DNA of 64,000 bases from positions 8,757 through 72,756 of the IMG/VR virus record IMGVR_UViG_3300046787_000345, one strand, 5' to 3'. A model generated the notes under the pieces. The model saw nothing but the letters and a program-made list of their open reading frames with translations. It was not told the DNA's origin and searched no databases. The stretch is from a virus. The translations under genes were made by a program, and so were the position numbers. Of the stretch, positions 16,577 to 59,067 are shown in pieces; positions within the stretch are counted from its first letter, which is position 1; each line of letters starts with the position of its first letter.

Positions 16577-16577
16577 A

Positions 16578-17724: not shown

Positions 17725-18989
17725 TACAATTTCTTAATTTCAGGTAATTTAAGAGCAATATGTTCAGTTGTCTTTACATATTTACCAAAAATTTTACCCA
17801 TTTCTTCAGTCATTTTATTTAATGAAAAGTTATTCTTTATATTAGAACTCAATCCTTTGGATGATTCTAAGTGTTTTGAATAATTTTTAAATACGTCTAA
17901 TAGTTTTTGTGCTGCATTTGAATAATTGACAGTGAACCATTTTGATTCTTTTAATAAAAACTGATTTGATGCAGATGCATGTACGGGTGTAAGTTCACCA
18001 TCTAATAAAATTGTATTCTCTTTAGGTAAAAAATCAACATGACCACTCCAATTACTAACTAAAATAGGTTTACCAGTACAAGCAAATTCTGCAAGTGGTC
18101 TACCATATCCTTCACCTTTGGTAAATGAAATCATAGTTTTTACTTTTGGATGATGATATAATGATGATAATTCTTCAGCTGTCATATCTCCAAATAATAA
18201 ATATATTGGTGGACACTGATTACCATATTCAGTTGTTAATTCTTTAATTTTATTTGCTATAGATTCTCTATCCATTACACTAAATCCTGCAGTTGATGTT
18301 TTTAAAATCAAACCAGGTTGTTTATCTTTTGGAGTATTTTTGAAAATAGTACAAAATGTTTTGATTAACATCCCCACATCTTTTCTATCTTGTCCTAAAT
18401 CACCTGATAACCAGTGTCCTACGAATAAAAAGTTAAATTCACTTTCAATATTTTCTAATACATCTTTTGATGTTTGGTGAGATTTAGTGAATACATCAAT
18501 ATCAACACCTTCGAAAAGAACTTCAATAGGTTTAACAATTGAAATATCTCTAATTTTTTGATTAGTTCTTTTATCTACCTCTGAAAATGTTGTTGATTTT
18601 AATACTTCTTTTGTGAAATTGGATGGTACTAAAACTAAATCCATTCGATTACACCCATCGATAAAATCTTTCGGTGCGATTGTAGTTTCAACTCCGGCAG
18701 TTACACCGATGTTGTACTTACCTAATGTTTGGAATTCATTTGCAACTGTTACTTGAACATATACATCTGGTTGTCTATCCAAATGAGTTACAACATTATC
18801 CAATATTCGTTGTCCGAATTCAGTTGTGATATCCAATTGGTTTTGTGGGGTAGTTCCCCAACGTGTTGGTATAATTTTCACATCGTACTTATCCAATTGA
18901 AAAATACTATGTAACAAATCTCTAGCGTGGTCGCCATATCCAGAACGTGTTGCTACAGGTCCTTGAAATACTAATAATGGTTTACTCAT
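17724..18989 (-). CDS. GT4 (GT-B) glycosyltransferase
   Basis: SGYG, KGEGYGRPLAE..CTGKP; likely start MSKPLLV at 18989. Confidence 0.88.
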   Translation of the reverse strand: MSKPLLVFQGPVATRSGYGDHARDLLHSIFQLDKYDVKIIPTRWGTTPQNQLDITTEFGQRILDNVVTHLDRQPDVYVQVTVANEFQTLGKYNIGVTAGVETTIAPKDFIDGCNRMDLVLVPSNFTKEVLKSTTFSEVDKRTNQKIRDISIVKPIEVLFEGVDIDVFTKSHQTSKDVLENIESEFNFLFVGHWLSGDLGQDRKDVGMLIKTFCTIFKNTPKDKQPGLILKTSTAGFSVMDRESIANKIKELTTEYGNQCPPIYLLFGDMTAEELSSLYHHPKVKTMISFTKGEGYGRPLAEFACTGKPILVSNWSGHVDFLPKENTILLDGELTPVHASASNQFLLKESKWFTVNYSNAAQKLLDVFKNYSKHLESSKGLSSNIKNNFSLNKMTEEMGKIFGKYVKTTEHIALKLPEIKKL

Positions 18990-19254
18990 TGCGTAATCTT
19001 TTTCGTTGTTCTTCTTGCTTGATACATCTTTCGATTGACATCTCAACCAATTTTGTAATATTTTGTAATGTGGTTGGTTGGTGTGGTGAATTAAACATTT
19101 CAAACTTTACGTTTTCAACTTCACTATCACCCAACACAAATATATAATAATCATCTGCTAGACCAGGAGTTTTATATATACTCTCTCTAGCTCTTTCTAT
19201 TCTTTCTTGTTCCCACATACCGGGAAGTCTTATTATGAATATAGGTTTACTCAT
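18982..19254 (-). CDS. Hypothetical protein
   Basis: ORF; likely start MSKPIFII at 19254. Confidence 0.55.
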   Translation of the reverse strand: MSKPIFIIRLPGMWEQERIERARESIYKTPGLADDYYIFVLGDSEVENVKFEMFNSPHQPTTLQNITKLVEMSIERCIKQEEQRKRLRNE

Positions 19255-19255
19255 A

Positions 19256-19681
19256 TTATTTACCTGTTGAACCAAATCCACCAGTTCCTCTTTCAGTAGT
19301 TGATAACTCATCTACTTCAGTCAATTCTATAATAGGATGTGGAATAATCATAATCTGACAAACTCGTTCTCCTACTTTGTAAGATATAGAATCCAATCCA
19401 TTTGATTTATTAAAAGTTGCTTGCAATTCTCCTCGATAACCCGAATCAATTACTCCTACCGAATTACTTAATGTAAGTTCCGTATTTCTGATTGATGAAC
19501 GAGGGAATACTAATCCAACAAATCCTTCAGGTATTTCCAATGCAATACCCAATCCATATGTTATTTGAAAAGTAGTATTTGAAATGATTGATGTTGCCAC
19601 CAAATCCAATCCTGCATCACTTTCCTTTGCGTACGCTGGGATTATTGCGTTAGGATGTACTCTTTTTATTTTTACTTTCAT
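19256..19681 (-). CDS. dut: Trimeric dUTPase
   Basis: AGLDL, PRSS, GVIDSGYRGE, RGTGGFGSTG. Confidence 0.96.
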   Translation of the reverse strand: MKVKIKRVHPNAIIPAYAKESDAGLDLVATSIISNTTFQITYGLGIALEIPEGFVGLVFPRSSIRNTELTLSNSVGVIDSGYRGELQATFNKSNGLDSISYKVGERVCQIMIIPHPIIELTEVDELSTTERGTGGFGSTGK

Positions 19682-19682
19682 T

Positions 19683-21077
19683 TTATGCTATTTTATATAG
19701 ATTATATCTATCTTTTGGTTTCCAATTTTGTAATGCAGTTTCCATACCATCAATCAATGTTTTACACATATATTTGGTATTTAAACCATCTTCTTTAATC
19801 ATCCAATTTCTACCTACCAATCCTCTTTGTTTACGTTCTTCTTTCGGAATATCATACCAATATCGAAGAACTTCTGCAACTTCATAGATATCTACTTTGT
19901 CATCGATAATATATGGAGTTGGGACTGAACCCACTAATGTTTGAACTTTACTAAATACTGGTTTAACCCATTCACCATGTTTAAGTTTATCACCCCACTC
20001 TCTAACATCATGCAATGAACCAATCTTTACATAATCTTCAGCAGTTAATTCTTTACCATCTAATGTAAATCCACACTGGTCTTGCAATCCACCCGTTACG
20101 TTTACAATGATTGGAGTTCCGGCCATAACTGATTCTGCAGTTACTAAACCAAATCCTTCATTACCTGCAATGTTAATTGTGATATCAGATAAATTGTATA
20201 GATAATTTAATTCTTGTTGTGAAATACGTGATTGTGAAAATCTAACATCGTAATCTGGACAAATGGTTTCTTTTACTGCGAATAAATCAGTTCCGTTTTG
20301 GTCAATTGGTGCTGTATGCATCAATAGTAAAACTTTACTCCTATCTTCTTCAGGTAACCCATCAACAAAACGTTTGTATGCCCAAATTACATCAGATGGT
20401 TGTTTACGTCTGATATTACGATTCATCCAAAATAAAACGAATTTGTAATCCTTATCACCTAAAATTGCTTTACGGAATTCTGCAGGTACTTCAGTTGGTT
20501 TGTATTTTTGAGGGTCAATACCATGCGGTACATAACTTACTTGCCAATCTTCTAATGGTTTAAACGTAACCTTATCATCGCGTTGACCTACTCTTTTTAC
20601 AATACCATAGGTTTGTTTAGAAATACATCCTAACCAATCACATGATTCATAATAATCTCTATTATATTGTGGGTCTGGTAAATCATCCCAAATATGGTAA
20701 AAGAAAATAGGAACATTTTGTCTAACTTCTGCTTCCATTTCGTATAACCATCTCCAATAACGAGGGTCAGTAAAATGTAGAATTGCATCAGGTTGATGTC
20801 TCATAATTAATTCACGTAAAATATTTGCATCACCATATCCACTATATGGAATGATTTTTACTGATGCATCTTCAATACCTGATATTTTTCTAGCATCTTC
20901 ACCCAAATCGATTTCTTTACCACTTTCTGGATGTTCTACTGCTGCACCTAATTGTACCCAATCGTATTTGTCTAACGTACCAAAAATAAGGTCTTTGGAT
21001 ACTGTTGCTATACCAGATGACATTCTAAAATCATCTGATAGTAAAAGAATTTTCTTTTTCTTTCTTTGTTCTGCCAT
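19683..21077 (-). CDS. GT4 (GT-B) glycosyltransferase
   Basis: VPHG, NRNIRRK, EGFGL..AES..AGTP. Confidence 0.9.
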   Translation of the reverse strand: MAEQRKKKKILLLSDDFRMSSGIATVSKDLIFGTLDKYDWVQLGAAVEHPESGKEIDLGEDARKISGIEDASVKIIPYSGYGDANILRELIMRHQPDAILHFTDPRYWRWLYEMEAEVRQNVPIFFYHIWDDLPDPQYNRDYYESCDWLGCISKQTYGIVKRVGQRDDKVTFKPLEDWQVSYVPHGIDPQKYKPTEVPAEFRKAILGDKDYKFVLFWMNRNIRRKQPSDVIWAYKRFVDGLPEEDRSKVLLLMHTAPIDQNGTDLFAVKETICPDYDVRFSQSRISQQELNYLYNLSDITINIAGNEGFGLVTAESVMAGTPIIVNVTGGLQDQCGFTLDGKELTAEDYVKIGSLHDVREWGDKLKHGEWVKPVFSKVQTLVGSVPTPYIIDDKVDIYEVAEVLRYWYDIPKEERKQRGLVGRNWMIKEDGLNTKYMCKTLIDGMETALQNWKPKDRYNLYKIA

Positions 21078-22971: not shown

Positions 22972-23277
22972 TTATTTTATAATCATTTCTAAATCCATCT
23001 CTCTACATAGATAGTATTCTTTATCACCTAAGTTAATCTTACGCAAACTCATTCCACCTGCAGGTAACATTACTTTATCACCAACTTCCACTTCCATTGG
23101 GATTCTAGTACCATTTTGGGTATAAATACCATTTCCAACTGAAACTACTACTCCAATTTGGTTTTCAGTATCTTTGACACTATCGGGTATGATAATACCA
23201 CCCACGGTCTTTTCTTTTGTTTCTACTTCGATTAGGACTCTATCTCCTAATGGTTTTGCTAATTGTTCGTTTGACAT
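22972..23277 (-). CDS. groES: Co-chaperonin GroES
   Basis: KPLGDRVLI, GGIIIPD, VVSVG.G, VGDKV. Confidence 0.93.
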   Translation of the reverse strand: MSNEQLAKPLGDRVLIEVETKEKTVGGIIIPDSVKDTENQIGVVVSVGNGIYTQNGTRIPMEVEVGDKVMLPAGGMSLRKINLGDKEYYLCREMDLEMIIK

Positions 23278-23557: not shown

Positions 23558-24100
23558 CTATATATTCAATAATTTTAATATATCTTCAACTGTCTTATCC
23601 CCCACATCCACAATATCATACGAAATGTTGTATTTTATTAGTGAATTTTCAATCTCAGCATCCAATATCTTAGATTCTTCTAATGATTGATATCGTTCCT
23701 TCTCATTATACCCACCTTCCGTTCGATTTAACACTATATTTAGGGAATCATACTGATTATGGATATCTAATACCATTCTATCAAAAGACTCTCCATATAA
23801 GGTTGCTGGGTACTCTAATCCTTTATATACTGAACGATATACTAAGGATAGTAGGATTGGTGAATCTAATATTATATAATCTACCTTACCAAAACTTTTA
23901 ACAATCCCTCTATGTTGATTTGCTAACACATATAATTGGTCTTTAATAGCCGAGTGGTTTTCATCCCATGCAAGTTGTTTTGGAAACTCATATGGATTGT
24001 CACACGTTATATGTTTCTTTTTAAGTTTATAGGTAAGACCGGAGGCAATTGAGGATTTACCTATACCCGGTCCACCAAATAGATTTATTATTTTACTCAT
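23558..24100 (-). CDS. P-loop nucleotide kinase-like ATPase (AAA_28/NadR-type)
   Basis: IINLFGGPGIGKS, ILDSP; likely start ATG 24100 coupled to the upstream stop. Confidence 0.75.
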   Translation of the reverse strand: MSKIINLFGGPGIGKSSIASGLTYKLKKKHITCDNPYEFPKQLAWDENHSAIKDQLYVLANQHRGIVKSFGKVDYIILDSPILLSLVYRSVYKGLEYPATLYGESFDRMVLDIHNQYDSLNIVLNRTEGGYNEKERYQSLEESKILDAEIENSLIKYNISYDIVDVGDKTVEDILKLLNI

Positions 24101-25047
24101 TATAGGATTCCGTTGATACCAATTAAAGTTGCCATAAAACAAATTTCTTTATCTACCACCAAAGCATCTCTATGTTGCCCTTGTGATAATTCTAAGATAA
24201 CTGCGGATGTATTACCTGCTGCATATTCATCTACTTTTTCATAAAGATATGTGTATAATTCCGTAAAATCTTGTACACGAGAATCTGCAACAGCTTGTCT
24301 TAAATTTACATAACGATTTCGTTTATCGTCTTTTGATTTAAGAATATCTACAATCTTAACTTTAACATCAGAATCTAATATAGAACCAGTATCAACTTTT
24401 AATACACCCTTAGATGAATTTAATTGACAAGTATTGATAATTTTACGAATATCAGGATACGATGCATCTACAATAGGAACTATTTCTTTTGGTTCAAATT
24501 GTACTTTTTCAGCATTCAATATTTTACTGATTTGAATTGCAACATCTCGTTTTGTAGGTGGTACTATTTGAAATGTTTGACAACGTGATTGAATTGGGTC
24601 AATTACTTTCTCAACATAATTACAAGTCAAAATAAAACGACAATGTTTTGAAAAAGTTTCCATTAAGTTACGCAAGATTGCCTGTGCATTTGGAGTCATA
24701 TAATCAAACTCATCCAAAATGATAATCTTAGTATCTTTAAATCCAATAGTAGAAGCAAAAGATTTCACCTTATTACGGACAGTATCTACGTTATTTTCAT
24801 CAGATGCATTGATAATCATAAAATCACAATTAATTGAATTTACAATCAACTTTGCTAATGTAGTTTTACCAGTACCTGCTTTACCGAATAGTAATAGATG
24901 GGGTACATCTCCGGTACTGATATAATCACCAATCTTTTGTTTTAAATGGTCATTACCAACATAATCTTCCAATTTTTTTGGTCGATACTTTTCAACCCAT
25001 AATGTATTATTGGTTTCTTCTCGTGTTACTTCTTCAAAAAACGCCAT
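24100..25047 (-). CDS. Clamp loader ATPase subunit (RFC / T4 gp44-like)
   Basis: WVEKYRP, GKAGTGKT, INASD, ILDEFD, SRC. Confidence 0.95.
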   Translation of the reverse strand: MAFFEEVTREETNNTLWVEKYRPKKLEDYVGNDHLKQKIGDYISTGDVPHLLLFGKAGTGKTTLAKLIVNSINCDFMIINASDENNVDTVRNKVKSFASTIGFKDTKIIILDEFDYMTPNAQAILRNLMETFSKHCRFILTCNYVEKVIDPIQSRCQTFQIVPPTKRDVAIQISKILNAEKVQFEPKEIVPIVDASYPDIRKIINTCQLNSSKGVLKVDTGSILDSDVKVKIVDILKSKDDKRNRYVNLRQAVADSRVQDFTELYTYLYEKVDEYAAGNTSAVILELSQGQHRDALVVDKEICFMATLIGINGIL

Positions 25048-25072: not shown

Positions 25073-26695
<1,623 letters not shown>

Positions 26696-26798: not shown

Positions 26799-29700
26799 TT
26801 ATCTACCAAATGTATATCTAATACCTAATTGTGCACTCCATACATCAAATACTGATGAGTTGTACTGATAGGTATCTCTAGCTAAGATAGTAGAACCATC
26901 AGTTAATCTTTGAGTTGCTAATCTATATGATGGAACATTGTTTGCATCTCTACTTACAAAGTTCAACAATTGAGGAGCAGTTGCTCTTTGAGAAACACCG
27001 AATTGGTTATCAACTAAGTTACCAAAGTTTAAGATATCTGCTCTGATTTGGAATGAATTTCTCTTTCCACCAATCTTAACAAAGATATCTTGTGCTACTG
27101 ATAAATCAAATCTATGTAAGTAAGGTAACAAACCACCATTTCTTTCAGCGTATTGACCTCTACGAGTTTTTAAGTAATCATCTTGGTCAATGAACTTATC
27201 AAATGCTGCTTGTTGTTCAGCTTCGGTATAAGTTCTTCCACCTGCAGTTAATGGTACGAATCTAATATCTGAACCTTTATTTGGAACGAAGATTAAATCG
27301 TTATTGTTTACTCTATCACCATTTAAATCACCTGCTGCAATATAAGAGAATGGATTACCTTGTTGTCCTACATATCCTAATGTAAATGTAGTTGCTCCAC
27401 CATAGTTTCCGCCATATTCAATTCTATAACCTAATAAACCTACGAATCTATTCTTAACAAACGCATCTGCAAATGATAATCCTAAATCGTTATTACCATT
27501 AACTGATAATGCTGATTGCCAACTACCACTAGCGATTGAACCTGCACTCATATAATCTTTTGAGTTAGCAGTTGTCCAAGCGATTGAACCCCAAAATCCT
27601 TTTTGAACTGGTTTTTCTAATTTTAATGTCAATGATTCGTGGAATGCACCATCTCTATTCGTAAGAACTGCTGCTCTACTTACATTGTTATTTACTCTTA
27701 CAGTTGCATCACTTCCACCGAAACGAGGTCTATTATCTACACCACCCAAAGTTCCAACAGGATTTCTTAGGTTAGCTTCGTAGTAATGAACTGCGTTAAG
27801 TGTTTGATTGTAAAGATATTCAGCACTTGCTATCAATCCGAAGAATGGTAACTTTTGGTCTACTGCCAAATTAGTTTTCCATACCTGTGGGAATTTATAG
27901 TTAGGGTCTGTCAATGCTAAATCAAATGTAGATGGTAAAGTTGGAGTTGATGGGATAAAGTATTTGTTAGGGTCAGCAGTAAATCCATATTGTGCTGCTG
28001 CTGCACCACTTACATCAATAAATCCTGTCAACACCCCATTGTTACCAATTTGGTTAGATAAGAATACATAAGGAGGTCTACCCGTGAATACACCAGTACC
28101 ACCTCTAAATTGTGTTTTGCTTTCACCTTTTAAATTATAGTTGAAACCAACACGTGGTTCAAATAAAACTTGTGTTTTTGGCATTAAACCAGTATTCCAT
28201 TTTTCTCCATTTGCAAATGTCATTGCAGATACTGCTTTGTTTTCTAACGCAGTATTATCAAATCCAATAATGTTTGCTCTAACACCAAACGTTAATTTCA
28301 AATCTTCAGTTGCATCATACTCATCTTGTAAGTATAAATCTAATCTATTTGACCTTAAAGTTTGTAATGGTTCAATTGCTCCTGGTAATGCCGAATAACG
28401 GAATTGGAAACGAGCAGGTGCGAATGTAGACGGTCTACCACCATTTGCTAATGATTGATTAGCTGCAGTATAAAAATCATTCAAACTATTGAAGATATAA
28501 ACACCATTTGATGCAGGGAAGAATAAGTTATTAGATTCATAACTTTGAAAATTGAAACCACCTACTAATGTATGTTTGTTCAAATATTTTGTTAAGTTAT
28601 TTGTTACGTTAAATGTAGAATAATCTAACTTATTTCCCGGAGTGAATGGGTCAAATCCTACTGATGTTAATGTAGTAGAACCTTGTAAGATATCAATCGT
28701 TGGAAACATTTGAGACATATAACCTCTATTTTCAATTTGTTTATCATAAGAAACGATTAAGTTATTATGTAATGTATTTGAAAACTTTGAGTTTAATTCC
28801 AATACTGCTGAACGAGTATTATCCTGAATAGTATAGCCACTATTTTGGAAACTCATTGCATTGATGTTTTGTGTTCTATTACCGAAACCTGCAGATTGTG
28901 AATTTGATATACCGATTTGTGCCTCAGAATCATGATAAACGTAACGTGCAGTTAATTTATTGTTTGCATTGATATTCCAGTCAACACGAACTAAAAATTT
29001 GTTAGATGTGTTTGTGTTAGAATATCCTTCAAATGGACCGGTTTCGTAGTTGAACTTATCTTTCATAAATTTAGAAAGGTCAGTCAATTGTTGGAAAGTT
29101 GGTCTACTCACTTGTGAACCCGTTAAAGGAGAACCTGATGAAATCCAAGTTGTACCTGGTTCAGTTCTTTCGATGCCTTCGTAGTTACCAAAAATGAATA
29201 ATTTGTTCTTAATGATTGGTGCACCTAAACGGAAACCTTGCACTCTTTCATCAAATTTAGATGGAGTAATAGTTGTTCCTCTTGCGTTATTACCAATGTA
29301 AGTAGAACTATTATTTCGTTGTGTTGTATATACCGAACCTTCAACTTCGTTTGTACCACTTCTCGTTACTGCGTTGATACCTGCTCCGGTGAAACCAGAT
29401 TGACGAATATCAAAAGGTGCAATATTAACTTGTAATTGGTCAATCGCATCTAATGAAATAGCACTTGCTCCAGTTCTACCACCCGCTTGTGCAGATGAAC
29501 CTAAACCGAAGTTGTTATTAAATTGAGAACCATCGATTGTGAAGTTATTCAAACGAGAATCTTGTGCTCCAAATGAGTTACCATTACCGAATGGATTGTA
29601 TTTTGTAATACCATCGATAGTTCTAGCACCCACAATTGGGATAGTTTGTAATTCTCTACGAGAAAATTGTTGAGATGCACCGGTTCTTTCTCTTGAAATA

Positions 29701-30074
29701 ATATTATTTCTTCCGGCTGTTACAACTACCTCTGATAATGTAGTTGTTCCATCAACTAAAATGAAATTAACGTTTGTAGTAATACCCAATTGAGTATTTA
29801 CATCTTTAATTTCATCTTTTTTGTACCCTACATAAGTAGCGTGTAATACATATGGTCCACCTACTCTTGTTGCAGGTAGTACATAAGTACCATTTTTGTT
29901 GGTTACAGTGTTGTACTGCGTACCTGTCGGTGTATGTACTGCGTGAATCGTAGCACCTACCAACACTTCATTTTTCTCGTTCTTCACAACACCAGAAATT
30001 GAGGAAGTAGTAATCTGACTAAATCCAAAAAACGTGGTCATTGCAAAAACTAACGATAAAATCAGTTTTTTCAT
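26799..30074 (-). CDS. TonB-dependent receptor (Oar-like, carboxypeptidase-regulatory-like N-domain)
   Basis: Signal peptide; LSEVVVTA; NNFTIDG; FTGAGINAVTRSGTN plug motif; C-terminal QLGIRYTF. Confidence 0.92.
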   Translation of the reverse strand: MKKLILSLVFAMTTFFGFSQITTSSISGVVKNEKNEVLVGATIHAVHTPTGTQYNTVTNKNGTYVLPATRVGGPYVLHATYVGYKKDEIKDVNTQLGITTNVNFILVDGTTTLSEVVVTAGRNNIISRERTGASQQFSRRELQTIPIVGARTIDGITKYNPFGNGNSFGAQDSRLNNFTIDGSQFNNNFGLGSSAQAGGRTGASAISLDAIDQLQVNIAPFDIRQSGFTGAGINAVTRSGTNEVEGSVYTTQRNNSSTYIGNNARGTTITPSKFDERVQGFRLGAPIIKNKLFIFGNYEGIERTEPGTTWISSGSPLTGSQVSRPTFQQLTDLSKFMKDKFNYETGPFEGYSNTNTSNKFLVRVDWNINANNKLTARYVYHDSEAQIGISNSQSAGFGNRTQNINAMSFQNSGYTIQDNTRSAVLELNSKFSNTLHNNLIVSYDKQIENRGYMSQMFPTIDILQGSTTLTSVGFDPFTPGNKLDYSTFNVTNNLTKYLNKHTLVGGFNFQSYESNNLFFPASNGVYIFNSLNDFYTAANQSLANGGRPSTFAPARFQFRYSALPGAIEPLQTLRSNRLDLYLQDEYDATEDLKLTFGVRANIIGFDNTALENKAVSAMTFANGEKWNTGLMPKTQVLFEPRVGFNYNLKGESKTQFRGGTGVFTGRPPYVFLSNQIGNNGVLTGFIDVSGAAAAQYGFTADPNKYFIPSTPTLPSTFDLALTDPNYKFPQVWKTNLAVDQKLPFFGLIASAEYLYNQTLNAVHYYEANLRNPVGTLGGVDNRPRFGGSDATVRVNNNVSRAAVLTNRDGAFHESLTLKLEKPVQKGFWGSIAWTTANSKDYMSAGSIASGSWQSALSVNGNNDLGLSFADAFVKNRFVGLLGYRIEYGGNYGGATTFTLGYVGQQGNPFSYIAAGDLNGDRVNNNDLIFVPNKGSDIRFVPLTAGGRTYTEAEQQAAFDKFIDQDDYLKTRRGQYAERNGGLLPYLHRFDLSVAQDIFVKIGGKRNSFQIRADILNFGNLVDNQFGVSQRATAPQLLNFVSRDANNVPSYRLATQRLTDGSTILARDTYQYNSSVFDVWSAQLGIRYTFGR

Positions 30075-31797: not shown

Positions 31798-33435
31798 TTA
31801 TGGTTTATAGAAAACAAATATTGGTTCAAACTTATAAGCTTTACCATCATGTTTTACTGCGTTTTTAATACCAGTTTTAGTTGGGTCTAATCCAACCATT
31901 CGAGTCATTAACATCTTTAATTTACCTTTGTATTGACATCCTAATTCATTAAGAATATCAATGGAATCTTTTTCTAAAGCATAATAGGTATCTTTACCAA
32001 TTTTAATATCTGCAATGTTCCATAGAATGTACCTATCATTCTTAGTATACTCATAGATAGTAGTTAAAGTAGGACGTAGGAAATTATCTCTCCAATCATC
32101 GTACTCACCATATGCTCTGAATGATTGATTCTCATCTTGTGAATATTGTTCTCTATTAAAGTATGGAGGTGATGTAAATGATAAATCCAACTTACCTTTG
32201 TATTTTTGGAACTTAGGATTATGTTGAATTAATTCAGAACCATCTTGAAACAATTCGTATGTATTACCTTGCTTTTCTACATCAAAGAATTTAGTAAATG
32301 TTTCAGAGAAATCATCCACACAATTATCATTGTAGAATTTAGCTGCATATTCATAACGAGATATCCCTAATTCTTCAATAAAGTTATCAGGATTTGGGTC
32401 AGTACCAATGTAATGGGTTTTCTTACGAGATGCCATTGCACCTAAAATTCTACCACCCCATCCACTTGATGAATCATAAATATGAAGAGGTTCATCTTGT
32501 TCAATATGTGATGTAAAATGTTCGTAAATCCACTTTGCAGTTAATGCAGGAAAGTTTACTGCAGGTTGTCCACAACTTAAACGGAATACTTGTAGGATTT
32601 TTGGAAATATACCAACTGTCTTATCGTACCAACGAATCAAATAATAAAACTTTTTAGTTGTTTTACCATCTGCAAGTGTCATACTATCTTCAATTACCTT
32701 AACATTTGATAATTGAGTTGGATTTAACCAACCATTATCTACACATCCTTGTAATTGTTCAGCAGTTAAATATAAGTTACCAAACCCAATATATTGTTCA
32801 TTGATAGTTCCGTAATTATCAATAGTATCTTCTTTTACTTTTGCAATTACGATATCCAAATCAGAATGTTTACCTACAAAGATTTTACCTTCATGTACTT
32901 TCTGAATAAACTCTACACCAGTTTCACCATCCCAAAACTCATTCTCATCTTTTTTATTTACGATGGAACGTGACCACGAATACATAGAATCTCTTTTAAC
33001 TGCTCTACGCATAATTTTCACAAACAATTCTTCTAAGTTAGGGTCAGAGAAATGGTCATAAATCGATAATCCACCATCAGCAGTTTTTCCGATTGAAATT
33101 TTAGTTTTCAACATTGTAGGGAAGAACTGATTAATAGCAGATGCATCTTTGTTAAAATTCTGAATAATACCTAATGATTCGTCATCTCCTGTTAAATCTT
33201 TTTGTAGGAAATCACAATCGTTTCCCTTTAATTTTTTAAATGATTCTATGATACCATCCTTATCTTTACCGATAACAGGAGGTACACCATCTTCATCCCA
33301 TTGCTTTGTAACTTCTTTACGAAGTAACTTAGCCCAATTGATGAACTCATCATCAGTCATTTGTAGTAACTGATGATAAGTTCTATTGGATTGGAATTCA
33401 GAAAATTTTGAACGTTCGTAGTAGTATTTACTCAT
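31798..33435 (-). CDS. DNA amino-methyltransferase (N4-C/N6-A type)
   Basis: YDSSSGWGGR (motif I), FTSPPYF (motif IV). Confidence 0.8.
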   Translation of the reverse strand: MSKYYYERSKFSEFQSNRTYHQLLQMTDDEFINWAKLLRKEVTKQWDEDGVPPVIGKDKDGIIESFKKLKGNDCDFLQKDLTGDDESLGIIQNFNKDASAINQFFPTMLKTKISIGKTADGGLSIYDHFSDPNLEELFVKIMRRAVKRDSMYSWSRSIVNKKDENEFWDGETGVEFIQKVHEGKIFVGKHSDLDIVIAKVKEDTIDNYGTINEQYIGFGNLYLTAEQLQGCVDNGWLNPTQLSNVKVIEDSMTLADGKTTKKFYYLIRWYDKTVGIFPKILQVFRLSCGQPAVNFPALTAKWIYEHFTSHIEQDEPLHIYDSSSGWGGRILGAMASRKKTHYIGTDPNPDNFIEELGISRYEYAAKFYNDNCVDDFSETFTKFFDVEKQGNTYELFQDGSELIQHNPKFQKYKGKLDLSFTSPPYFNREQYSQDENQSFRAYGEYDDWRDNFLRPTLTTIYEYTKNDRYILWNIADIKIGKDTYYALEKDSIDILNELGCQYKGKLKMLMTRMVGLDPTKTGIKNAVKHDGKAYKFEPIFVFYKP

Positions 33436-33438
33436 ATA

Positions 33439-34152
33439 TTAACTAGCGATTTCTACTAAGTAGTAATCAGATGTATATTCACCCGCTTCAAAATGGATGT
33501 GTGATAAACCTTGTGATGAAATGTTTAAAGTAGCATCTTTTGCTTCTTTGTTAGCAACTAAAATTTCTTTTAAGTATGTTGCTGAGAATGAGATTGGTTC
33601 TACATCACCATCAATTTCACCATCTACATCAATAGAAATTCGGTTAGTATTGATATTAGAATGTCCTAATACGATTTGTGCCTTACCATTCTTTACAACG
33701 AATGTAAAGTTGTTTTCATCCGTTAATGCACTCTTAGCACGAATGAATTTAGTAATAAAGTTTTCATCCAATTTGATTTTGATATTGAAATCTGGTAATT
33801 TCTTCAAATCAGGTACGTTAGGAATAACCGAAAGGTCTGCTAACATATAGTTTACTGAAGTTGAACCATCTTTGAATTTCAAAGAAACTGCTTTACCATC
33901 TACATCAGAAATTTCAAAATCAACTGATTCACCTAATACACCTAACATCTTTGTTAGTTTGGATGTATCATATACACCGAATGTTGTATCGTTAAAATTG
34001 AACTCAGTCATTGTTACTTTACCCAATACCGATTTATCATCAGAAATGAATGAAGTTGTTAATGAATTGTCTTTTGTTTCCCATTTTACTGATTCTACCA
34101 AACCAGCAAGGTTGTACTTTTGTACGAAACGATTTAATTTACCTTTTTCCAT
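33439..34152 (-). CDS. Sliding clamp (gp45/PCNA-like)
   Basis: 237 aa; FGVYD..L pattern; adjacent to PolB. Confidence 0.75.
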   Translation of the reverse strand: MEKGKLNRFVQKYNLAGLVESVKWETKDNSLTTSFISDDKSVLGKVTMTEFNFNDTTFGVYDTSKLTKMLGVLGESVDFEISDVDGKAVSLKFKDGSTSVNYMLADLSVIPNVPDLKKLPDFNIKIKLDENFITKFIRAKSALTDENNFTFVVKNGKAQIVLGHSNINTNRISIDVDGEIDGDVEPISFSATYLKEILVANKEAKDATLNISSQGLSHIHFEAGEYTSDYYLVEIAS

Positions 34153-36799: not shown

Positions 36800-37639
36800 T
36801 TAAAACTTATAAATTCCACCAATATTCCAGAACAAAATAGTTCCTTCAATTTGGTCTATATTCTCTTCTAACCATTTCCATTGTTTTATATCCCAAAATT
36901 GGTTACAAGGGAATGGTGCTTCATATCCATCCAAACGATTTTCGAATAGATACTCTGATTTTCGTATGTTTAACGGAATTGGTATTCCACTCTTTTTTAG
37001 AGTTTTTTTGATTGAACTTTCAGATGATACACATGTTGTCCAAATCTTTCTACTAACCGATGGGAAAAACTCTTTAAGTTCTTCTCTATAATATCCTCTA
37101 GCCAAACCAGATAAAGTTACTCCACTACCTGATGATACTACTAAATTATCAAAATGTACGAATGGTTGAATTCTTTCTGCAAGATAATCTTTATAAAAAT
37201 CGTGGTCAAAAGCGTAAGGTAACATTTGCCAACCATTTTCTCTTGCCTGACCTCTAAGTGAGTTGTACATAATCTGCATCATATTAGGTCTGATTGGATT
37301 CAAATGTACTTTTGGATACATTTCCTTAATCATTCCTAAATACTCTTGTGATATCTTTTTAGAATCAGGATGTGAAACATAAAATTCTATATCCAATTCT
37401 TCACATATTGCTGCAAGTGCCCAACCTGTCCAACTTCCATCTACTGAAAGGTGGGTTAATGGTTTAGATTTATCAATATATTTTTTAACCAATTCATATA
37501 ATGCTGCTACTTTTCCCCACGGCGGTAAAAGTGTACCATCACCCATAAGGTCATCTCTTTTTACCCAAACTTCTCTACCTTTAATATGATAAAGTTCTAA
37601 TGGAGTATCTTCATTTAAACCTTTTAATTTTAAATCCAT
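36800..37639 (-). CDS. PLP-dependent enzyme, fold type II (ACC deaminase/D-cysteine desulfhydrase-like)
   Basis: TPL...VWVKRDDL.G....GK (PLP lysine); SSGSGVT phosphate loop; LFWNIGG. Confidence 0.75.
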   Translation of the reverse strand: MDLKLKGLNEDTPLELYHIKGREVWVKRDDLMGDGTLLPPWGKVAALYELVKKYIDKSKPLTHLSVDGSWTGWALAAICEELDIEFYVSHPDSKKISQEYLGMIKEMYPKVHLNPIRPNMMQIMYNSLRGQARENGWQMLPYAFDHDFYKDYLAERIQPFVHFDNLVVSSGSGVTLSGLARGYYREELKEFFPSVSRKIWTTCVSSESSIKKTLKKSGIPIPLNIRKSEYLFENRLDGYEAPFPCNQFWDIKQWKWLEENIDQIEGTILFWNIGGIYKF

Positions 37640-39135
37640 TTATACAACCCTCCTGCGTTTGATATCAACTCACCTTTCATACTTCTATGTGAGAATCCAT
37701 AAATTTTTTCAAAATTATCCCCAATCACATTAATCATCTTCTTTCTATTTTTGAAATTGATGATAGGGTCATTTAAAATAATATCTTCAATATATTGTTT
37801 AAAGTTTGTACCTTTTTGAAATGCTCTTTTCTCTTGGTCTAATATTTCATCAGGTAACTTACCTCTAAATGCATTTGCTAATGGTAGTTTCCATTGGTTT
37901 CCTTTTGCCAAGTATTCATCAGTAAGATTTGTGGTATAGTTTAAAAATTCTCTATCAAAGAATGGACATCTTAATTCGATTGTACCATAATTCATAAAGA
38001 TATTGTTACCTCTTAATAAATTACCATAGTATTGTTTTTCAAATAATTTTTTACGAACATCACTCCAATCTGGTTTCTTACTGAACATACGGAAAGTTCC
38101 ATATGAACCATATGATTCATCACTACCCTCACCACTAAATGCTACTTTGATACCATCCTTTGCCATTTCTTCGGCAATAAAGGATTGTAAAATACCCACT
38201 TCCATTTGAACAGTTGATGGGTATTCGATTACTTTAATTGAATCTATAAATCTTTGTTTAATTATTTCCTCATCACGAGGTACGAATACTTCTATCAATT
38301 CTACACCTAAATATTTGGCACATACTCTTGCTTTTTGTAAATCCTTAGATTCTTGGTCAAATGCAATTGTATACGCTTTTAGATTGGGAATTCTTTGTGA
38401 TAGTAAATATGTAATAACTGCCGAATCAATCCCTCCACTTAATGATGTGGCAATTGGAACATCTGAAAGTAGACGTTTGTCAACTGCACTTTCTAATAAC
38501 TTAAAAGTAGTTTCAGCAACTTCATCATGTGAATTAACTTCAGTAGGTTCGGATGCAAACTGAAAATAGTAATTTTCGTTTACTACAATTGTATCAGTAT
38601 CCAAATCAATCTCAACTAATGAGTTTTTTGGTACAAATTTTATATCAGATGTTTTATGTTGGGTAACAATTGATTTTATTTCACTTGCAATAATATATTT
38701 GTTTGTGTTGTAAATATACAATGGCAACTTACCCACCCAATCGCGTGATACTAATAATTTGTTATTATCAAAAATAACAAACGAAAACATACCCTCAAGT
38801 CGTTTCAGTTCATTTTCTTTATATAAGAATAGGATAATTTCTGAATCGGAGTTCGATTTAAATGTATACCCTCGTTCTTCATATTCTTTACGAAGTTGTG
38901 GGTAATTCCATATCTCACCATTTACTACTAATTCTACACCATCATATTCCATAGGTTGATTACCCAAAGGAGATGTATCGTTAATAGATAAACGATTATG
39001 TCCTAAAATGATATGCTTATCTCCATACTTAAATTCTTTGATACCGCGGTTATCTCTACCACGATGTTCAATTGCTTCAAGCATATCGTTCACATCTTCT
39101 TTATTATACCCTATGGTTGCTACGATTCCACACAT
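37630..39135 (-). CDS. Asparagine synthetase B-like glutamine amidotransferase
   Basis: MCGI Ntn-Cys; HRG.D; NGEIWN; SLSGGIDS; SGEGSDE; R.PF.D. Confidence 0.92.
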   Translation of the reverse strand: MCGIVATIGYNKEDVNDMLEAIEHRGRDNRGIKEFKYGDKHIILGHNRLSINDTSPLGNQPMEYDGVELVVNGEIWNYPQLRKEYEERGYTFKSNSDSEIILFLYKENELKRLEGMFSFVIFDNNKLLVSRDWVGKLPLYIYNTNKYIIASEIKSIVTQHKTSDIKFVPKNSLVEIDLDTDTIVVNENYYFQFASEPTEVNSHDEVAETTFKLLESAVDKRLLSDVPIATSLSGGIDSAVITYLLSQRIPNLKAYTIAFDQESKDLQKARVCAKYLGVELIEVFVPRDEEIIKQRFIDSIKVIEYPSTVQMEVGILQSFIAEEMAKDGIKVAFSGEGSDESYGSYGTFRMFSKKPDWSDVRKKLFEKQYYGNLLRGNNIFMNYGTIELRCPFFDREFLNYTTNLTDEYLAKGNQWKLPLANAFRGKLPDEILDQEKRAFQKGTNFKQYIEDIILNDPIINFKNRKKMINVIGDNFEKIYGFSHRSMKGELISNAGGLYKWI

Positions 39136-39136
39136 A

Positions 39137-39835
39137 TTATTTATTTAATACTTCTAATAACTTATGAGTTTTTTTTGTTTCATCATTCATTTTACCGATA
39201 TGACAAGAACATGCTAGAACTGATACTTTTTCTAATTCCATATCACTTTCTTTAGCTAAGAATTTACCCATCTCAACTAATGCAGTATAATCTGCATAAC
39301 CTGATTTAGATACTCTATTTGAACGAATAATTGATGTCAGATAAATTTTACCATTACGAGGTTTGATATCAATTGCTAACATACAAGGTTGTGAATATGG
39401 ATTTCTTGCATCTCTGCTTGGGTCAAAGATAATTAATTCACATCTCTTAACTGCTTTACCAGTCTTTAAGATTTTAATTACATTTTCTACCTGATTGAAT
39501 GTTCCTTGCCATGCAACCATTCTACCCCAATATGAATCACTCCATTTATCTTTAATAAATTTATATTCCAATCCTTCTTCTGCTGCAAAGAATGGACTAT
39601 CTGAAACGTGTGGTTGTGGTTCTAAAAATGTTACTGTCTTTGCATAATCAATTCTATCATCACCCATAATTTCTCTAAAATGTGGGTCAAACCAATCATC
39701 AGATTCAAACTTTGTGATTTCAGTCATCACATTTAGTTCTTCGGTTAAATCACCTACTTTTACTCCATTTGCAATAAGGTGTTTAGATACCTTTACCCAT
39801 GCATCGCCGGGGGATGTTGCTTCTATTACTGTCAT
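39137..39835 (-). CDS. Divergent thymidylate synthase / dCMP hydroxymethylase homolog
   Basis: Y.GR...NQ..VI..LK, DP, PC catalytic Cys, RSN, H near the C-terminus. Confidence 0.75.
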   Translation of the reverse strand: MTVIEATSPGDAWVKVSKHLIANGVKVGDLTEELNVMTEITKFESDDWFDPHFREIMGDDRIDYAKTVTFLEPQPHVSDSPFFAAEEGLEYKFIKDKWSDSYWGRMVAWQGTFNQVENVIKILKTGKAVKRCELIIFDPSRDARNPYSQPCMLAIDIKPRNGKIYLTSIIRSNRVSKSGYADYTALVEMGKFLAKESDMELEKVSVLACSCHIGKMNDETKKTHKLLEVLNK

Positions 39836-39846
39836 ATGTGTTTATT

Positions 39847-41079
39847 TTATAATTTACGCCAGACCCATACAGGTTCACCAAACGTTTTATCTTTTGCTTC
39901 TTCGTTCTTTTTCAATTCCTCTTCGGAATATCTTTCTTCATCACCATCTATAATCATCCCTGCCCCTGCAGAACCCGGTCTTTTAGCCATTTCCATACCC
40001 AAACACCCCTCGTAGTGTGCACCGTCTAGAGTGGAAATAAAATCGTTCATAGGATTAGTGATTTCTTGTTGACCTTTACCATCACCTTTCGATGATGCAT
40101 ACACATCGGCAATGTTTATAGCCAAATATCCACCTTTAGCGATAGTAGGCCAAACATTAGCGATTGTCTTATGTAAAAAGTTTTTATTCCAATCATCAAT
40201 TGTTTTATATCTAATCCAACTTTGAGTGTCATCATATGAATAACGTTCTACGTTAAAATAAGGTGGTGAACTGAATACAATATCGAAGTATTCTTTATAT
40301 TCACTCAAATCCAAATCTTCTGCTGGAGATTCATAGAATGTTGATTTCTTTTCCGTTTCGAAGAACCCATTGTTCTTCTCATAGAAATCTGCTTGTTGTC
40401 TATAAATTGGATGATTTTCTTTACGAGGGTCAATACCTACATAATGCTCACCATGCTCGGATGCATAAAATCCACATAATCTATCACCCCATCCTGCTGA
40501 AATATCTAATACGTTTTTTGCTTCTACAAAATCGTATAATACTTTAGCAACGTTTGGTTTAAATTGTGAACAAATGTATTTTCGTAGGGATAGACACGTT
40601 CGTAAAGTATTCTTACTAACCTCATCGAATTTTAATGTATACATTCCACCCATAAGGGAGAACATAAAATCTGGATTATTCCAAGTACGATAAGGACCAG
40701 GTGAAACTGTGCCATCAACACTCCATCTATTTGCTTGTTGGAAATAGTTTGATGCTGGATTACCTGTATTTATTCTACGAACAAATTGTTGTTTTCCTTG
40801 AAATGTTAGTGGGTATTTGGATTCGGTTGCTTTTCGAGGCACCCATTCTCCTTCAGTAAATAATTCATGCCAACGAAATCCTTTTAGTTTAAGGTATTCT
40901 TTTCTGGCTTCTTCTTCAGTAATATCTGCATATGGAATTTCGTATGTTGCTGCTACTTTTGCTAAAGATTCTTTTACATCTTCTCTATCAAAAGTTCTTT
41001 TAATATACTCCCATTCTTCATTACCGATAAAGAGATATGGTGTCATACCATAAAACTTATCAAAATATTCTAAATACAT
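39847..41079 (-). CDS. DNA amino-methyltransferase (N4-C/N6-A type)
   Basis: LDISAGWGDR, FSSPPYF; paralog of 31798..33435. Confidence 0.8.
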   Translation of the reverse strand: MYLEYFDKFYGMTPYLFIGNEEWEYIKRTFDREDVKESLAKVAATYEIPYADITEEEARKEYLKLKGFRWHELFTEGEWVPRKATESKYPLTFQGKQQFVRRINTGNPASNYFQQANRWSVDGTVSPGPYRTWNNPDFMFSLMGGMYTLKFDEVSKNTLRTCLSLRKYICSQFKPNVAKVLYDFVEAKNVLDISAGWGDRLCGFYASEHGEHYVGIDPRKENHPIYRQQADFYEKNNGFFETEKKSTFYESPAEDLDLSEYKEYFDIVFSSPPYFNVERYSYDDTQSWIRYKTIDDWNKNFLHKTIANVWPTIAKGGYLAINIADVYASSKGDGKGQQEITNPMNDFISTLDGAHYEGCLGMEMAKRPGSAGAGMIIDGDEERYSEEELKKNEEAKDKTFGEPVWVWRKL

Positions 41080-41135: not shown

Positions 41136-41321
41136 TTAAATGTGTGTCCAAGTGTGACGTTTTACGATTTCCTCAACATTCCATTTACTAACTTTAAAGT
41201 TTCTAGCGATAACGTTAGTAGAGAACCCTTGTTTAAAGAGTTCTCTAATTATCCTAACTTGTTCGTTTGTAAGTTTTGCTTTCGGATGATTTTCACCACA
41301 CCTTTTATTTGATACACTCAT
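41136..41321 (-). CDS. Small HTH protein resembling the C-terminal DNA-binding tail of HNH homing endonucleases
   Basis: GENHPKAKLT...V..IR, IARNFKVS..V..I...W.H. Confidence 0.65.
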   Translation of the reverse strand: MSVSNKRCGENHPKAKLTNEQVRIIRELFKQGFSTNVIARNFKVSKWNVEEIVKRHTWTHI

Positions 41322-51236: not shown

Positions 51237-51698
51237 TTATTTTGCCCATTTTCCATTGGAAACGATTTGGGCTATAATTCCATATACTGAAAGGTCTTGA
51301 AATGTATCTTCTAAGGATTCACCAACTAAATCTTCTTTGTTTAAAACTACTAATTGTTTCAAACGTTGGATTTTATCGTTTACTCTGAACCAAAGACCTG
51401 TTAGTGATAATTTCTTATCATCTTCAGTTTCTAAGGATGTACCCACTGCAATGTTTCCTGGTCCATAATTGGATTGTTTCATGCAGAATAATTCATATTG
51501 AGTAAACATAATACGTTTAAACTCATCAGTCATTTCTGGATATTGTTTTTCGATTTCTTCTACGAGTTTGGGATTATCGTATTTGATGAACGCAACCTCA
51601 TCATCGTTTTGTTCGATTTTAGGTGCGATATTAAGTTCTAACTTATTCTTGCTCTCCTGTTTAATGATACGAGGAGTTTGTGTTGTGCTCTTTGACAT
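51237..51698 (-). CDS. Nucleotide modification associated domain 1 (Nmad1/DUF1599-like) protein
   Basis: K..NYG, R..DK..R, E...DT..DL..Y pattern. Confidence 0.8.
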   Translation of the reverse strand: MSKSTTQTPRIIKQESKNKLELNIAPKIEQNDDEVAFIKYDNPKLVEEIEKQYPEMTDEFKRIMFTQYELFCMKQSNYGPGNIAVGTSLETEDDKKLSLTGLWFRVNDKIQRLKQLVVLNKEDLVGESLEDTFQDLSVYGIIAQIVSNGKWAK

Positions 51699-58425: not shown

Positions 58426-59067
58426 TTATTTAAATTTCAATCCTGTTAATTTTTCAATATCCGAAACTAATACTTTGTTATTGTTTATTCCATCTGGTTT
58501 AGATAAATCATTCTGAAATAAATACGCGAACCATTCTTTTGTTTTTACTATATAAACCACTTTCCAACATTGTGTCGGAACTGCAACTTTATTTACACCT
58601 ATTGTTTTAGCAACTCCAATATTTCCAGCCCAGATATGAACTGAATCTTGTTTCACTGCCCATTCTCTTGTTAGAGTTTCTAATGATTTCCAATCACCTG
58701 CATTTAATCTATGATATTGTGCAGCCATATTAGAATAATAGAAACATTCATCTTGTACCGCTTGGGTTTGACATTGATTTGATTTTGCAGGCATTAAATG
58801 ACCTCTATCCGTTCCACTATTTACATAATCTGCACCAATATTTGTTTCTTTTGGTAATAAAGGGTCGGGCTTGAAATTATCTTTACGTGGTAACGGATTT
58901 GGACAACCAACTTTTGCTTTGGTTTCCCACCATTCTACTAATACCGGGTATTTTTTTGATTTTGAAAAGTGTGATGTGTAATTTGTATGTTTTAGAACTA
59001 CCACATCTTGTGCCTTAAGACCTAAGGCGAAACATAACACTAAAATTAGTGTAAAAAATTTTTTCAT
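58426..59067 (-). CDS. Secreted DNA/RNA non-specific endonuclease (NucA/EndoG family)
   Basis: Signal peptide; DRGHL; F.YSNM.Q...LN...W..LE; VP...WK. Confidence 0.92.
   Translation of the reverse strand: MKKFFTLILVLCFALGLKAQDVVVLKHTNYTSHFSKSKKYPVLVEWWETKAKVGCPNPLPRKDNFKPDPLLPKETNIGADYVNSGTDRGHLMPAKSNQCQTQAVQDECFYYSNMAAQYHRLNAGDWKSLETLTREWAVKQDSVHIWAGNIGVAKTIGVNKVAVPTQCWKVVYIVKTKEWFAYLFQNDLSKPDGINNNKVLVSDIEKLTGLKFK

Follow-up and report, generated by a model that had tools for sequence, protein, structure and literature searches.

In phages, pyrimidine hypermodification of DNA starts mainly with enzymes of the thymidylate synthase (TS) superfamily. The closest described members are the hydroxymethylases of deoxycytidylate (dCMP) and CMP, T4 gp42 and MilA (5b6d), which use methylenetetrahydrofolate; the small, phage-encoded, flavin-dependent 5-hydroxy-dCMP synthases RB69 gp48, DLP3 gp80, and HY126 AfhB (9iqu and 9iqc); and the dUMP hydroxymethylases of the thymidine hypermodification systems of phages M6 and ViI, which occur with a pyridoxal phosphate (PLP) decarboxylase of the M6 gp52/ViI gp226 family and with radical S-adenosylmethionine (SAM) enzymes as alternative or extra tailoring steps (Lee et al. 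2018, 2021). Here we describe a gene for a small TS-fold protein, P0001, in the DNA of a large aquatic phage, within a 64,000-nucleotide stretch (the window), which is part of the 72,756-bp IMG/VR record IMGVR_UViG_3300046787_000345, estimated to be 40% complete. We propose, with a probability of roughly 60%, that P0001 is an active, cytosine-directed TS-fold enzyme of a virus-restricted clade, predicted to modify dCMP at C5 and to start a new cytosine hypermodification pathway.

P0001 resembles the flavin-dependent 5-hydroxy-dCMP synthases in its small TS fold, short C terminus, catalytic cysteine, and phage origin, as well as in having an Asp at the position of Asn177 of Escherichia coli ThyA and in lacking Asp169; AfhB is also its top structural match, tied with MilA. 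Unlike these synthases, however, the P0001 clade has Arg or Ala instead of Asn at position 169 and no Glu at the position of Leu143, is separate in the tree and 16 to 17% identical in sequence, and is flanked by amidotransferase, PLP decarboxylase, and methylase-like genes rather than by arabinose and nucleoside diphosphate (NDP)-sugar genes. With T4 gp42 and MilA, P0001 has in common the catalytic Cys, the Arg-Ser phosphate motif, the Asp at the Asn177 position, and the His of the HxY motif, whereas in those two enzymes Asp169 is conserved and the Leu143 position is acidic. Methanogen-type small TS proteins (TIGR03283) are of similar size and also have shortened N and C termini, but P0001 scores far under the cut-off of that model, and the distant small TS relatives mostly keep Asp169 and Asn177. 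As in M6 and ViI, the TS homologue here is accompanied by a PLP decarboxylase of the gp52/gp226 family and, in some relatives, by radical SAM enzymes.

A TS superfamily enzyme that modifies nucleotides in a phage hypermodification cluster is of a known kind; there is a real chance that its cofactor chemistry is new. As far as searched, the conserved partner set that goes with the third state at position 169 and the cytosine-type Asp has not appeared in print: a full-text literature search found no description of the clade or of a TS-AsnB-PLP module, and an earlier one may exist. The clade is common and occurs in complete phage genomes; contigs related to the window reach 177 to 289 kb and were rated complete by CheckV. 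If our proposal is true, these phages would make a new modified cytosine, possibly by new TS-fold chemistry and with new DNA-base enzymes, which would be useful for studies of restriction evasion, for understanding sequencing artefacts in metaviromes, and as enzyme tools.

Signature residues and fold of P0001

In ThyA, Asn177 confers specificity for dUMP (an Asp there, as in T4 dCMP hydroxymethylase, confers specificity for dCMP), Asp169 contacts the folate, and Tyr209 contacts the 3'-OH. A 2026 paper (PMC13326640) lists ThyA residue 169 among 12 residues within 6 Å of C5 of dUMP and identifies it as the mark of a folate-to-flavin switch in cofactor chemistry, with D169N characterizing the flavin-dependent 5-hydroxy-dCMP synthases; it also describes an acidic residue at the Leu143 position as typical of hydroxymethylases and L143E as present in the flavin-dependent synthases.

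The initial annotation, based on a hand alignment, had placed an Asp at the Asn177 position and an Arg at the Asp169 position, and the HMMER, MAFFT, and profile-profile alignments all agree with it. The HMMER alignments to MilA (5b6d) and AfhB (9iqu) run without gaps from Arg171-Ser172 through Asp182, with Arg174 opposite the MilA Asp and the AfhB Asn and Asp182 opposite an Asp in both. MAFFT alignment with E. coli ThyA, T4 gp42, and RB69 gp48 places Arg174 at ThyA Asp169 (Asp in T4, Asn in RB69), Asp182 at ThyA Asn177 (Asp in both phage enzymes), and His212-Ile-Gly214 at ThyA His207-Leu-Tyr209. The hhalign comparison of the family profile (A4) with a TS profile (A6) gave the identical ungapped register (probability, 99.9%; E value, 3.5e-33; 218 columns). 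An hhalign comparison with the single ThyA sequence instead introduced a +3/-3 gap pair that put Gly179 at the Asn177 position; this register was rejected because it is weak (probability, 4%) and is contradicted by the three stronger alignments. Arg174 is thus neither the Asp of T4 gp42 and MilA nor the Asn of RB69 gp48 and AfhB. Near the Leu143 position, the P0001 family has a small residue (Ser or Gly) and no acidic residue, although the mapping of this position is less certain as it falls in an insertion of the profile-profile alignment.

The peptide IRSNRVSKSGYADY (residues 170 to 183; encoded by positions 39287 to 39328 on the minus strand) carries both signature residues. The catalytic Pro-Cys pair was described in the initial annotation as kept and the HLY motif as changed to HIG, and this was borne out, with QPCM at residues 149 to 152 (positions 39380 to 39391, minus strand; Cys151 being the counterpart of ThyA Cys146) and SCHIG at residues 210 to 214. 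The phosphate motif equivalent to ThyA Arg166-Ser167 is also present. In a 19-sequence alignment (A1), Cys151, Lys130/Arg131, Arg171, Ser172, Asp182, and His212 are invariant, as are 85 columns overall, which indicates strong purifying selection.

The match of P0001 to Pfam PF00303 was weak, with an E value of 3.9e-4 and 20.1 bits, under its gathering threshold of 24.3 bits, which some close homologues of P0001 pass. The best family model was TIGR03283 (E value, 1.9e-18; 66.7 bits against a cut-off of 174.55), PHROGs TS families matched at 1e-7 to 1e-8, and the best sequence match in the PDB was MilA (5b6d; profile E value, 1.2e-5). An AlphaFold2 (AF2) model built on 19 homologues has the TS fold, with a mean predicted local distance difference test (pLDDT) score of 81 and a predicted template modeling (pTM) score of 0.82, and with low confidence at residues 108 to 112 and 138 to 149. 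Foldseek ranked AfhB 9iqu first (E value, 1.5e-11), followed by MilA, ThyA, and T4 dCMP hydroxymethylase. In VIA comparisons, the Z scores were 17.8 for AfhB 9iqu (root mean square deviation, 3.1; 195 aligned residues), 17.5 for 9iqc, 17.1 for MilA 5b6e, and ~15 for ThyA entries, the first three being tied within one Z unit.

A virus-restricted clade with a fixed signature

A word-indexed search over 5.8 billion clusters yielded 228 close homologues at an E value of ≤1e-3 among 340 candidates; among the 120 matches listed, identity to P0001 was 67 to 100% and the source annotation was thymidylate synthase. An exhaustive profile search covering 1.84 billion representatives gave 689 matching proteins at ≤1e-3, 62 at ≤1e-10, and 14 at ≤1e-30. 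The residues at the Cys, 169, and 177 positions were read from a hidden Markov model alignment of 269 proteins (120 close, 12 intermediate, and 137 distant relatives). All 120 close and all 12 intermediate relatives have Cys, Arg or Ala (128 Arg and 4 Ala), and Asp. Both features that the initial annotation had claimed for this TS homologue, the cytosine-type Asp and the lack of the conserved Asp169, are thus fixed throughout the clade (132/132). The 137 distant small TS proteins have Cys/Asp/Asn in 52 cases, Cys/Asp/Asp in 31, and a gap at one or more of the three positions in 17, the others being mixed. The Cys/Arg-or-Ala/Asp pattern is not due to chance.

When residues up to 219 were compared, the clade-specific conserved positions clustered in two cofactor-side segments with clade-invariant motifs, F49-D50..F53-R54...G58..R61-I62-D63.A65 and S176-K177.G179-Y180. 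In a quick maximum-likelihood tree of 101 rows, the 25 rows with Arg or Ala followed by Asp form a single branch (Shimodaira-Hasegawa-like approximate likelihood ratio test [SH-aLRT], 99). Its sister group comprises 15 rows (SH-aLRT, 97) in which position 169 is mostly non-Asp and position 177 is Asn. Among these sister proteins (P0152, P0186, P0202, P0211, P0233, P0243, P0254, and others), residue 169 is His, Phe, Tyr, Leu, Asn, Gln, Thr, or Arg, and Asp in 2 of the 15; the five members aligned do not keep the phosphate Ser167 and His207, and two of the five also lack Arg166.

The clade is almost exclusively viral. A scan that took one genome per species from 185,579 species of bacteria and archaea recovered a single full-length match, located on a 44-kb contig of a metagenome-assembled genome that carries the same module, while the seven other matches listed span just 18 to 31 residues. 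Matches found by tblastn in cultured phages (Enterococcus phage nattely, Lactobacillus phage ATCCB, and Gordonia phages) were considered as clade members and rejected; the two genes inspected, those of nattely and ATCCB, are of the Asp/Asp hydroxymethylase type, adjoin a beta-glucosyltransferase gene, and lie outside the P0001 clade. Searches for related loci seeded with the single proteins P0127, P0124, and P0121 gave no confirmed locus.

Five complete related genomes that carry the small TS-like gene were searched for ThyA and ThyX. Four of them encode a canonical ThyA (300 to 316 bits; RSVDTFLGLPFN), which upon translation and alignment shows PPCH, RSVDTFLGLPFNIASY, and HLY, and the fifth encodes ThyX (158 bits). 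A second TS was not found in the record that contains the window, which is 40% complete. Since the complete relatives also encode a canonical ThyA or ThyX, P0001, judged from this gene content, is probably not the thymidylate synthase of the phage.

Conserved gene module around P0001

The P0001 gene lies in a tightly packed array of u410, TS, AsnB, and PLP genes, with spacings of 11, 1, and -10 nucleotides (Table 1): u410 ends 11 nucleotides before the TS start codon, AsnB starts 1 nucleotide past the TS stop codon, and the PLP gene overlaps AsnB by 10 nucleotides. Synteny was analyzed in 64 distinct loci drawn from the close and the wider family; at least 2,600 nucleotides of downstream sequence are available for 55 of them. 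In these 55, a PP-loop gene followed by a PLP gene is present downstream in 51, PP-loop, PLP, and radical SAM genes in 1, PP-loop and radical SAM genes in 2, and a radical SAM gene alone in 1, so that the PLP gene is adjacent to the TS homologue in 52. Of the 53 loci in which the upstream sequence is long enough as well, 46 contain an N4-methylase-like gene at a distance of at most 6 kb. The link to the neighbouring AsnB-like and PLP genes, noticed in the initial annotation for this one locus, is thus tight and conserved. The gene order is retained among relatives with as little as 40% identity, alongside swaps of partners and gene fusions, one of which (P0127) joins TS and radical SAM domains.

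The PP-loop partner exists in two forms, a full AsnB and a PP-loop-only protein of ~300 residues, and the second takes the place of the first in six loci of close relatives, even between phages whose TS-like proteins are 77 to 79% identical. The protein in the window (AsnB501) is 30% identical to E. coli AsnB over its full length and has an intact glutaminase Cys. Among the relatives of u410 and its paralogue u545, PF01555 scores exceed the cut-off or come close to it, and Vibrio phage homologues of the two carry the annotation N4-cytosine methylase; in one branch of relatives, a u545 homologue is the gene immediately upstream of the TS-like gene. Resemblance of the radical SAM partners to B12-binding class B enzymes is weak, with scores far under the cut-offs, and they show no detectable similarity to M6 gp53 (BLASTP E value, 0.13).

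The PLP gene is, as far as sequence can tell, the strongest functional lead in the module. Its product (PLP279) matches phrog_7093 (E value, 4.7e-24), its invariant Lys43 aligns with the PLP-binding Lys of the 1-aminocyclopropane-1-carboxylate deaminase homologue 1j0a, and tblastn detected homologues in 62 phage records, mostly of Pseudomonas and Bordetella phages of the M6/YuA group. The match in M6 is gp52, to which the PLP family profile aligns in hhalign over the whole length (261 columns; probability, 99.8%; E value, 8.2e-29), and the family and gp52 have a common tail, PFPCN.F.D.K.W.WL...FWNIG. As described by Lee et al. 2021 (PMC8989533), purified gp52 decarboxylates C-alpha-glycinylthymidine in DNA to 5-(2-aminoethyl)uridine, and its gene in M6 adjoins that of a radical SAM isomerase; the same paper mentions uncharacterized metavirome clusters with glutamine amidotransferase domains.

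The module differs from the M6 and ViI systems in other respects. Its TS homologue is of the cytosine type (Asp182) and not a dUMP hydroxymethylase, and its conserved partners are AsnB or PP-loop and N4-methylase-like genes. Furthermore, no homologue of the 5-hydroxymethyldeoxyuridine (5-hmdU) DNA kinase, of aGPT-Pplase/amino-acid:DNA transferase, or of the gp53-type radical SAM enzyme was detected: tblastn with M6 gp51 (amino-acid:DNA transferase), gp53 (radical SAM), gp54 (kinase), and gp58 (TS) found none in the window or the collected loci at an E value of ≤1e-3, a search that remote homologues could escape; of the M6 proteins, gp52 alone gave a match.

Other fusions and mobile elements were seen at these loci. 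Locus L078 encodes an 801-residue fusion of a radical SAM domain and an N6_N4 DNA methylase (L078:4486-6891) and a fusion of uracil-DNA glycosylase (UDG) and family A DNA polymerase (L078:9139-11748); the latter architecture has recently been tied to phages with T-hypermodified genomes, according to PMC13697223. Homing endonuclease genes or their remnants abut the module: a GIY-YIG/NUMOD3 open reading frame (ORF) runs into the TS-like gene in L053 (7233 to 8687), a GIY-YIG gene follows the radical SAM gene in L114 (10181 to 10807), and in the window a 61-residue HNH fragment is found upstream of u410 (41136 to 41321).

Proposed pathway and alternative explanations

We read P0001 as the putative first enzyme of a cytosine hypermodification module because its residue at position 169 is neither Asp nor Asn, because both cofactor-side segments are rebuilt, and because Asp182 argues for cytosine. 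P0001 would bind a pyrimidine 5'-monophosphate through Lys130/Arg131, Arg171, and Ser172, as read from the sequence, and the substrate would be dCMP, with Asp182 reading N3 and N4 of the cytosine. By the chemistry of the family, Cys151 would attack C6 in a Michael addition, for which the protein has all the required residues, and make C5 nucleophilic, and C5 would capture an electrophile held in a rebuilt co-substrate pocket, where Arg or Ala takes the place of the Asp that contacts the pterin and the cofactor-side segments (residues 49 to 65 and 176 to 180) have clade-specific motifs. The modified dCMP would be phosphorylated by a thymidylate kinase (TMK)-like enzyme and incorporated by the phage DNA polymerase B (PolB). 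The AsnB/PP-loop enzyme could adenylate a carboxylate and form an amide on the side chain, and the gp52-like PLP enzyme could remove the carboxyl group of an alpha-amino-acid moiety, probably at the level of DNA, like M6 gp52; a class B-like radical SAM enzyme may replace or share the PLP step in some relatives. The flanking N4-cytosine-methylase-like proteins may target the same base and may assist the steps that take place on DNA. As end product, we predict a C5-substituted cytosine with an amine and/or carboxamide side chain that would protect the phage DNA.

What the co-substrate might be is judged with less confidence. A compound that is neither folate nor flavin, such as an amino-acid-derived or iminium-type electrophile, is a possible but tentative choice, and unusual binding of a folate or pterin is likewise possible. 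Flavin with O2, which would yield 5-hydroxy-dCMP, seems somewhat unlikely, and there is a slight chance that it is something else. The initial annotation had suggested that the co-substrate could be the product of the neighbouring PLP or AsnB-like enzyme. Given the homology to gp52, a downstream decarboxylase of amino-acid:base conjugates in DNA, we consider this less likely than downstream tailoring, and the PLP enzyme would tailor the product rather than supply the co-substrate. A sulfur relay formed by a PLP desulfhydrase and a PP-loop enzyme was also considered and rejected, as the PP-loop partner is an AsnB-type protein whose glutaminase Cys is intact and the PLP enzyme resembles gp52. 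We regard as doubtful the wider claim that the clade represents a third cofactor class of the TS superfamily, using neither folate nor flavin, whose partners build a new amine- or carboxamide-bearing cytosine that replaces or marks C in widespread aquatic jumbo phages.

Several observations weigh against the proposed pathway. The nearest outgroups of the clade are small TS proteins that retain Asp169, and T4 dCMP hydroxymethylase also lacks the long ThyA C terminus and yet uses folate, so that folate use by P0001 is conceivable. Whether residue 174 is Arg or Ala shows no link to the partner genes (a correlation with AsnB, short PP-loop, or radical SAM partners was looked for and rejected); since Ala substitutes regardless of these genes, Arg174 cannot be a key ligand-binding residue and is not essential to the clade. 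ThyA Tyr209 is lost (Gly214 in P0001, variable across the clade), and the substrate may deviate from a plain deoxynucleoside monophosphate (dNMP) at its sugar or 3' side. The AF2 model is weak right around residues 100 to 150, near the active-site entrance. AsnB501 passes the NCBIfam asparagine synthase model TIGR01536 (294.7 against 267.1 bits) and could in principle simply make asparagine. Synteny within a conserved replication module partly reflects the shared ancestry of related phages. Finally, no 5-hmdU DNA kinase or aGPT-Pplase Pfam match that would point to how an amino acid is attached was found among the window ORFs scanned.

Alternatively, P0001 could be a dCMP hydroxymethylase or methylase that depends on a folate or pterin but contacts the pterin atypically, giving 5-hydroxymethyl-dCMP or 5-methyl-dCMP, with downstream enzymes or glycosyltransferases decorating the 5-hydroxymethylcytosine. 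The fold and catalytic residues common to T4 gp42 and MilA, the Asp169 of the nearest outgroups, the Ser or Gly near the Leu143 position, which could let water enter, and the glycosyltransferase genes at 14979 to 21077, one of which is conserved in all five complete relatives, are consistent with such an enzyme. We nevertheless find it rather unlikely: every folate-dependent reference aligned (ThyA, T4 gp42, and MilA) has Asp169 while 132 of 132 family members have Arg or Ala, both cofactor-side segments are rebuilt, and the acidic residue at the Leu143 position that PMC13326640 gives as typical of hydroxymethylases is absent, with the reservation that the mapping of this position is uncertain. 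A flavin-dependent 5-hydroxy-dCMP synthase like RB69 gp48 or HY126 AfhB, whose 5-hydroxyl group would then be derivatized, is unlikely. The AfhB entries 9iqu and 9iqc are the top structural matches (Foldseek E value, 1.5e-11; VIA Z scores, 17.8 and 17.5), the Asp at the Asn177 position, the loss of Asp169, and the short C terminus all fit, and the genome resembles the RB69 cluster in encoding glycosyltransferases and a TMK-like kinase; however, the lead over MilA is less than one Z unit and amounts to a tie, identity to AfhB is just 16 to 17%, RB69 gp48 falls outside the clade on a long branch, and the diagnostic D169N and L143E of PMC13326640 are replaced by Arg or Ala and by a nonacidic residue, respectively. 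No arabinose-5-phosphate or NDP-sugar genes adjoin P0001, the conserved neighbours being of amidotransferase and decarboxylase types.

We consider it very unlikely that the TS-like enzyme acts on something other than a free dNMP, such as CMP or cytosine in DNA presented by the methylase-like proteins, although Tyr209 is lost at a variable position, CMP is the preferred substrate of MilA (a near-best match), homologues of M6 gp52 have DNA as their substrate, and fusions join TS with radical SAM (P0127) and radical SAM with DNA-methylase-like domains (L078). The predicted 5'-phosphate-binding residues are invariant, the gene lies among ribonucleotide reductase (RNR), thioredoxin, kinase, and dUTPase genes, and, to our knowledge, all characterized TS-fold enzymes act on mononucleotides. 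It is hardly credible that P0001 represents a decayed paralogue or just an ordinary thymidylate synthase, with AsnB and PLP genes as unrelated auxiliary metabolic genes adjacent by chance. The source annotations of its homologues do read thymidylate synthase, and AsnB501 is over the cut-off of the asparagine synthase model. This explanation is contradicted, however, by the canonical ThyA or ThyX of all five complete relatives, the change of Asn177 to Asp in all members, the strong purifying selection with 85 invariant columns in A1, the gene order kept to 40% identity with swaps and fusions, and the homology of the PLP gene product to a DNA hypermodification enzyme.

Other genes in the window

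The window has a GC content of ~32%, and its minus strand carries nearly all genes. The block around the TS-like gene is devoted to replication and nucleotide metabolism and encodes a family B DNA polymerase, RNR alpha and beta subunits, thioredoxin, a DnaB-like helicase, a FEN-type nuclease, a RecA/UvsX-like protein, and a gp32-like protein. Next to the PolB gene lies the gene for a 237-residue protein (33439 to 34152, minus strand) that matches phrog_12062 and, faintly, the C-terminal domain of the DNA polymerase III beta clamp (E value, 0.013); it is probably a sliding clamp outside the modification module.

Table 1. Positions of P0001, its signature codons, and module or candidate module genes in the window
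Feature	Length (aa)	Position	Strand	Remark
Small TS-fold enzyme P0001	232	39137..39835	-	Stop-free ORF
P0001 catalytic Cys151 codon		39383-39385	-	Within QPC151M
P0001 Arg174 codon (ThyA Asp169 position)		39314-39316	-	Placed by alignments
P0001 Asp182 codon (ThyA Asn177 position)		39290-39292	-	Placed by alignments
AsnB-type glutamine amidotransferase/PP-loop synthetase (AsnB501)	501	37630..39135	-	MCGI N terminus; SGGIDS and SGEGSDE motifs
Fold-type II PLP enzyme (PLP279)	279	36800..37639	-	Invariant Lys43; full-length M6 gp52 homologue
N6/N4 amino-methyltransferase-like u410	410	39847..41079	-	SPPY motif IV at residue 271
N4-methyltransferase-like u545	545	31798..33435	-	Paralogue of u410; SPPY at residue 422
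Thymidylate-kinase-like dNMP kinase	194	23558..24142	-	Putative module member
dUTPase-family enzyme	141	19256..19681	-	Putative module member
DUF1599 protein	153	51237..51698	-	Pfam "nucleotide modification associated domain 1" (E value, 1.4e-5)

Some genes farther away could serve the proposed pathway. The TMK-like kinase, which is present in four of the five complete relatives, is a candidate kinase for the modified dNMP; in one complete relative, the gene (G003:C1:198800-199357) has an in-frame TAA stop inside the match. The dUTPase-family enzyme is a possible supplier of dNMP. DUF1599, found in one window protein, is also matched weakly by P0224, a distant TS protein of 543 residues.

The dUTPase gene sits amid a block of sugar and glycosyltransferase genes (12238 to 21077, minus strand) that encode FkbM and Methyltransf_24 methyltransferases, a glycosyltransferase family 8 (GT8) protein, an NAD-dependent epimerase/dehydratase, a GT2 protein, and two phrog_2170 glycosyltransferases, the glycosyltransferase genes spanning 14979 to 21077. 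One of the phrog_2170 proteins also matches Pfam "GT4-conflict," and this GT4-like gene is found in all five complete relatives. The glycosyltransferase block could serve to glycosylate DNA or have another target.

The phage also encodes GroEL (25073 to 26692) and GroES (22972 to 23277), both on the minus strand, and in locus L044 a GroEL gene (12462 to 14084; more than 750 bits with NCBIfam) directly follows the PLP gene. Within the phage gene array, an outer membrane beta-barrel protein of 1,091 residues (26799 to 30074, minus strand) combines a match to OMP_b-brl_4 (E value, 4.9e-47) with a CarboxypepD_reg domain; this architecture is like that of TonB-dependent receptors, and the gene may be host derived or may encode a virion or host range protein. 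A DNA/RNA nonspecific endonuclease is encoded at 58426 to 59067 on the minus strand (E value, 1.2e-37), in keeping with a phage that breaks down host DNA and protects its own.

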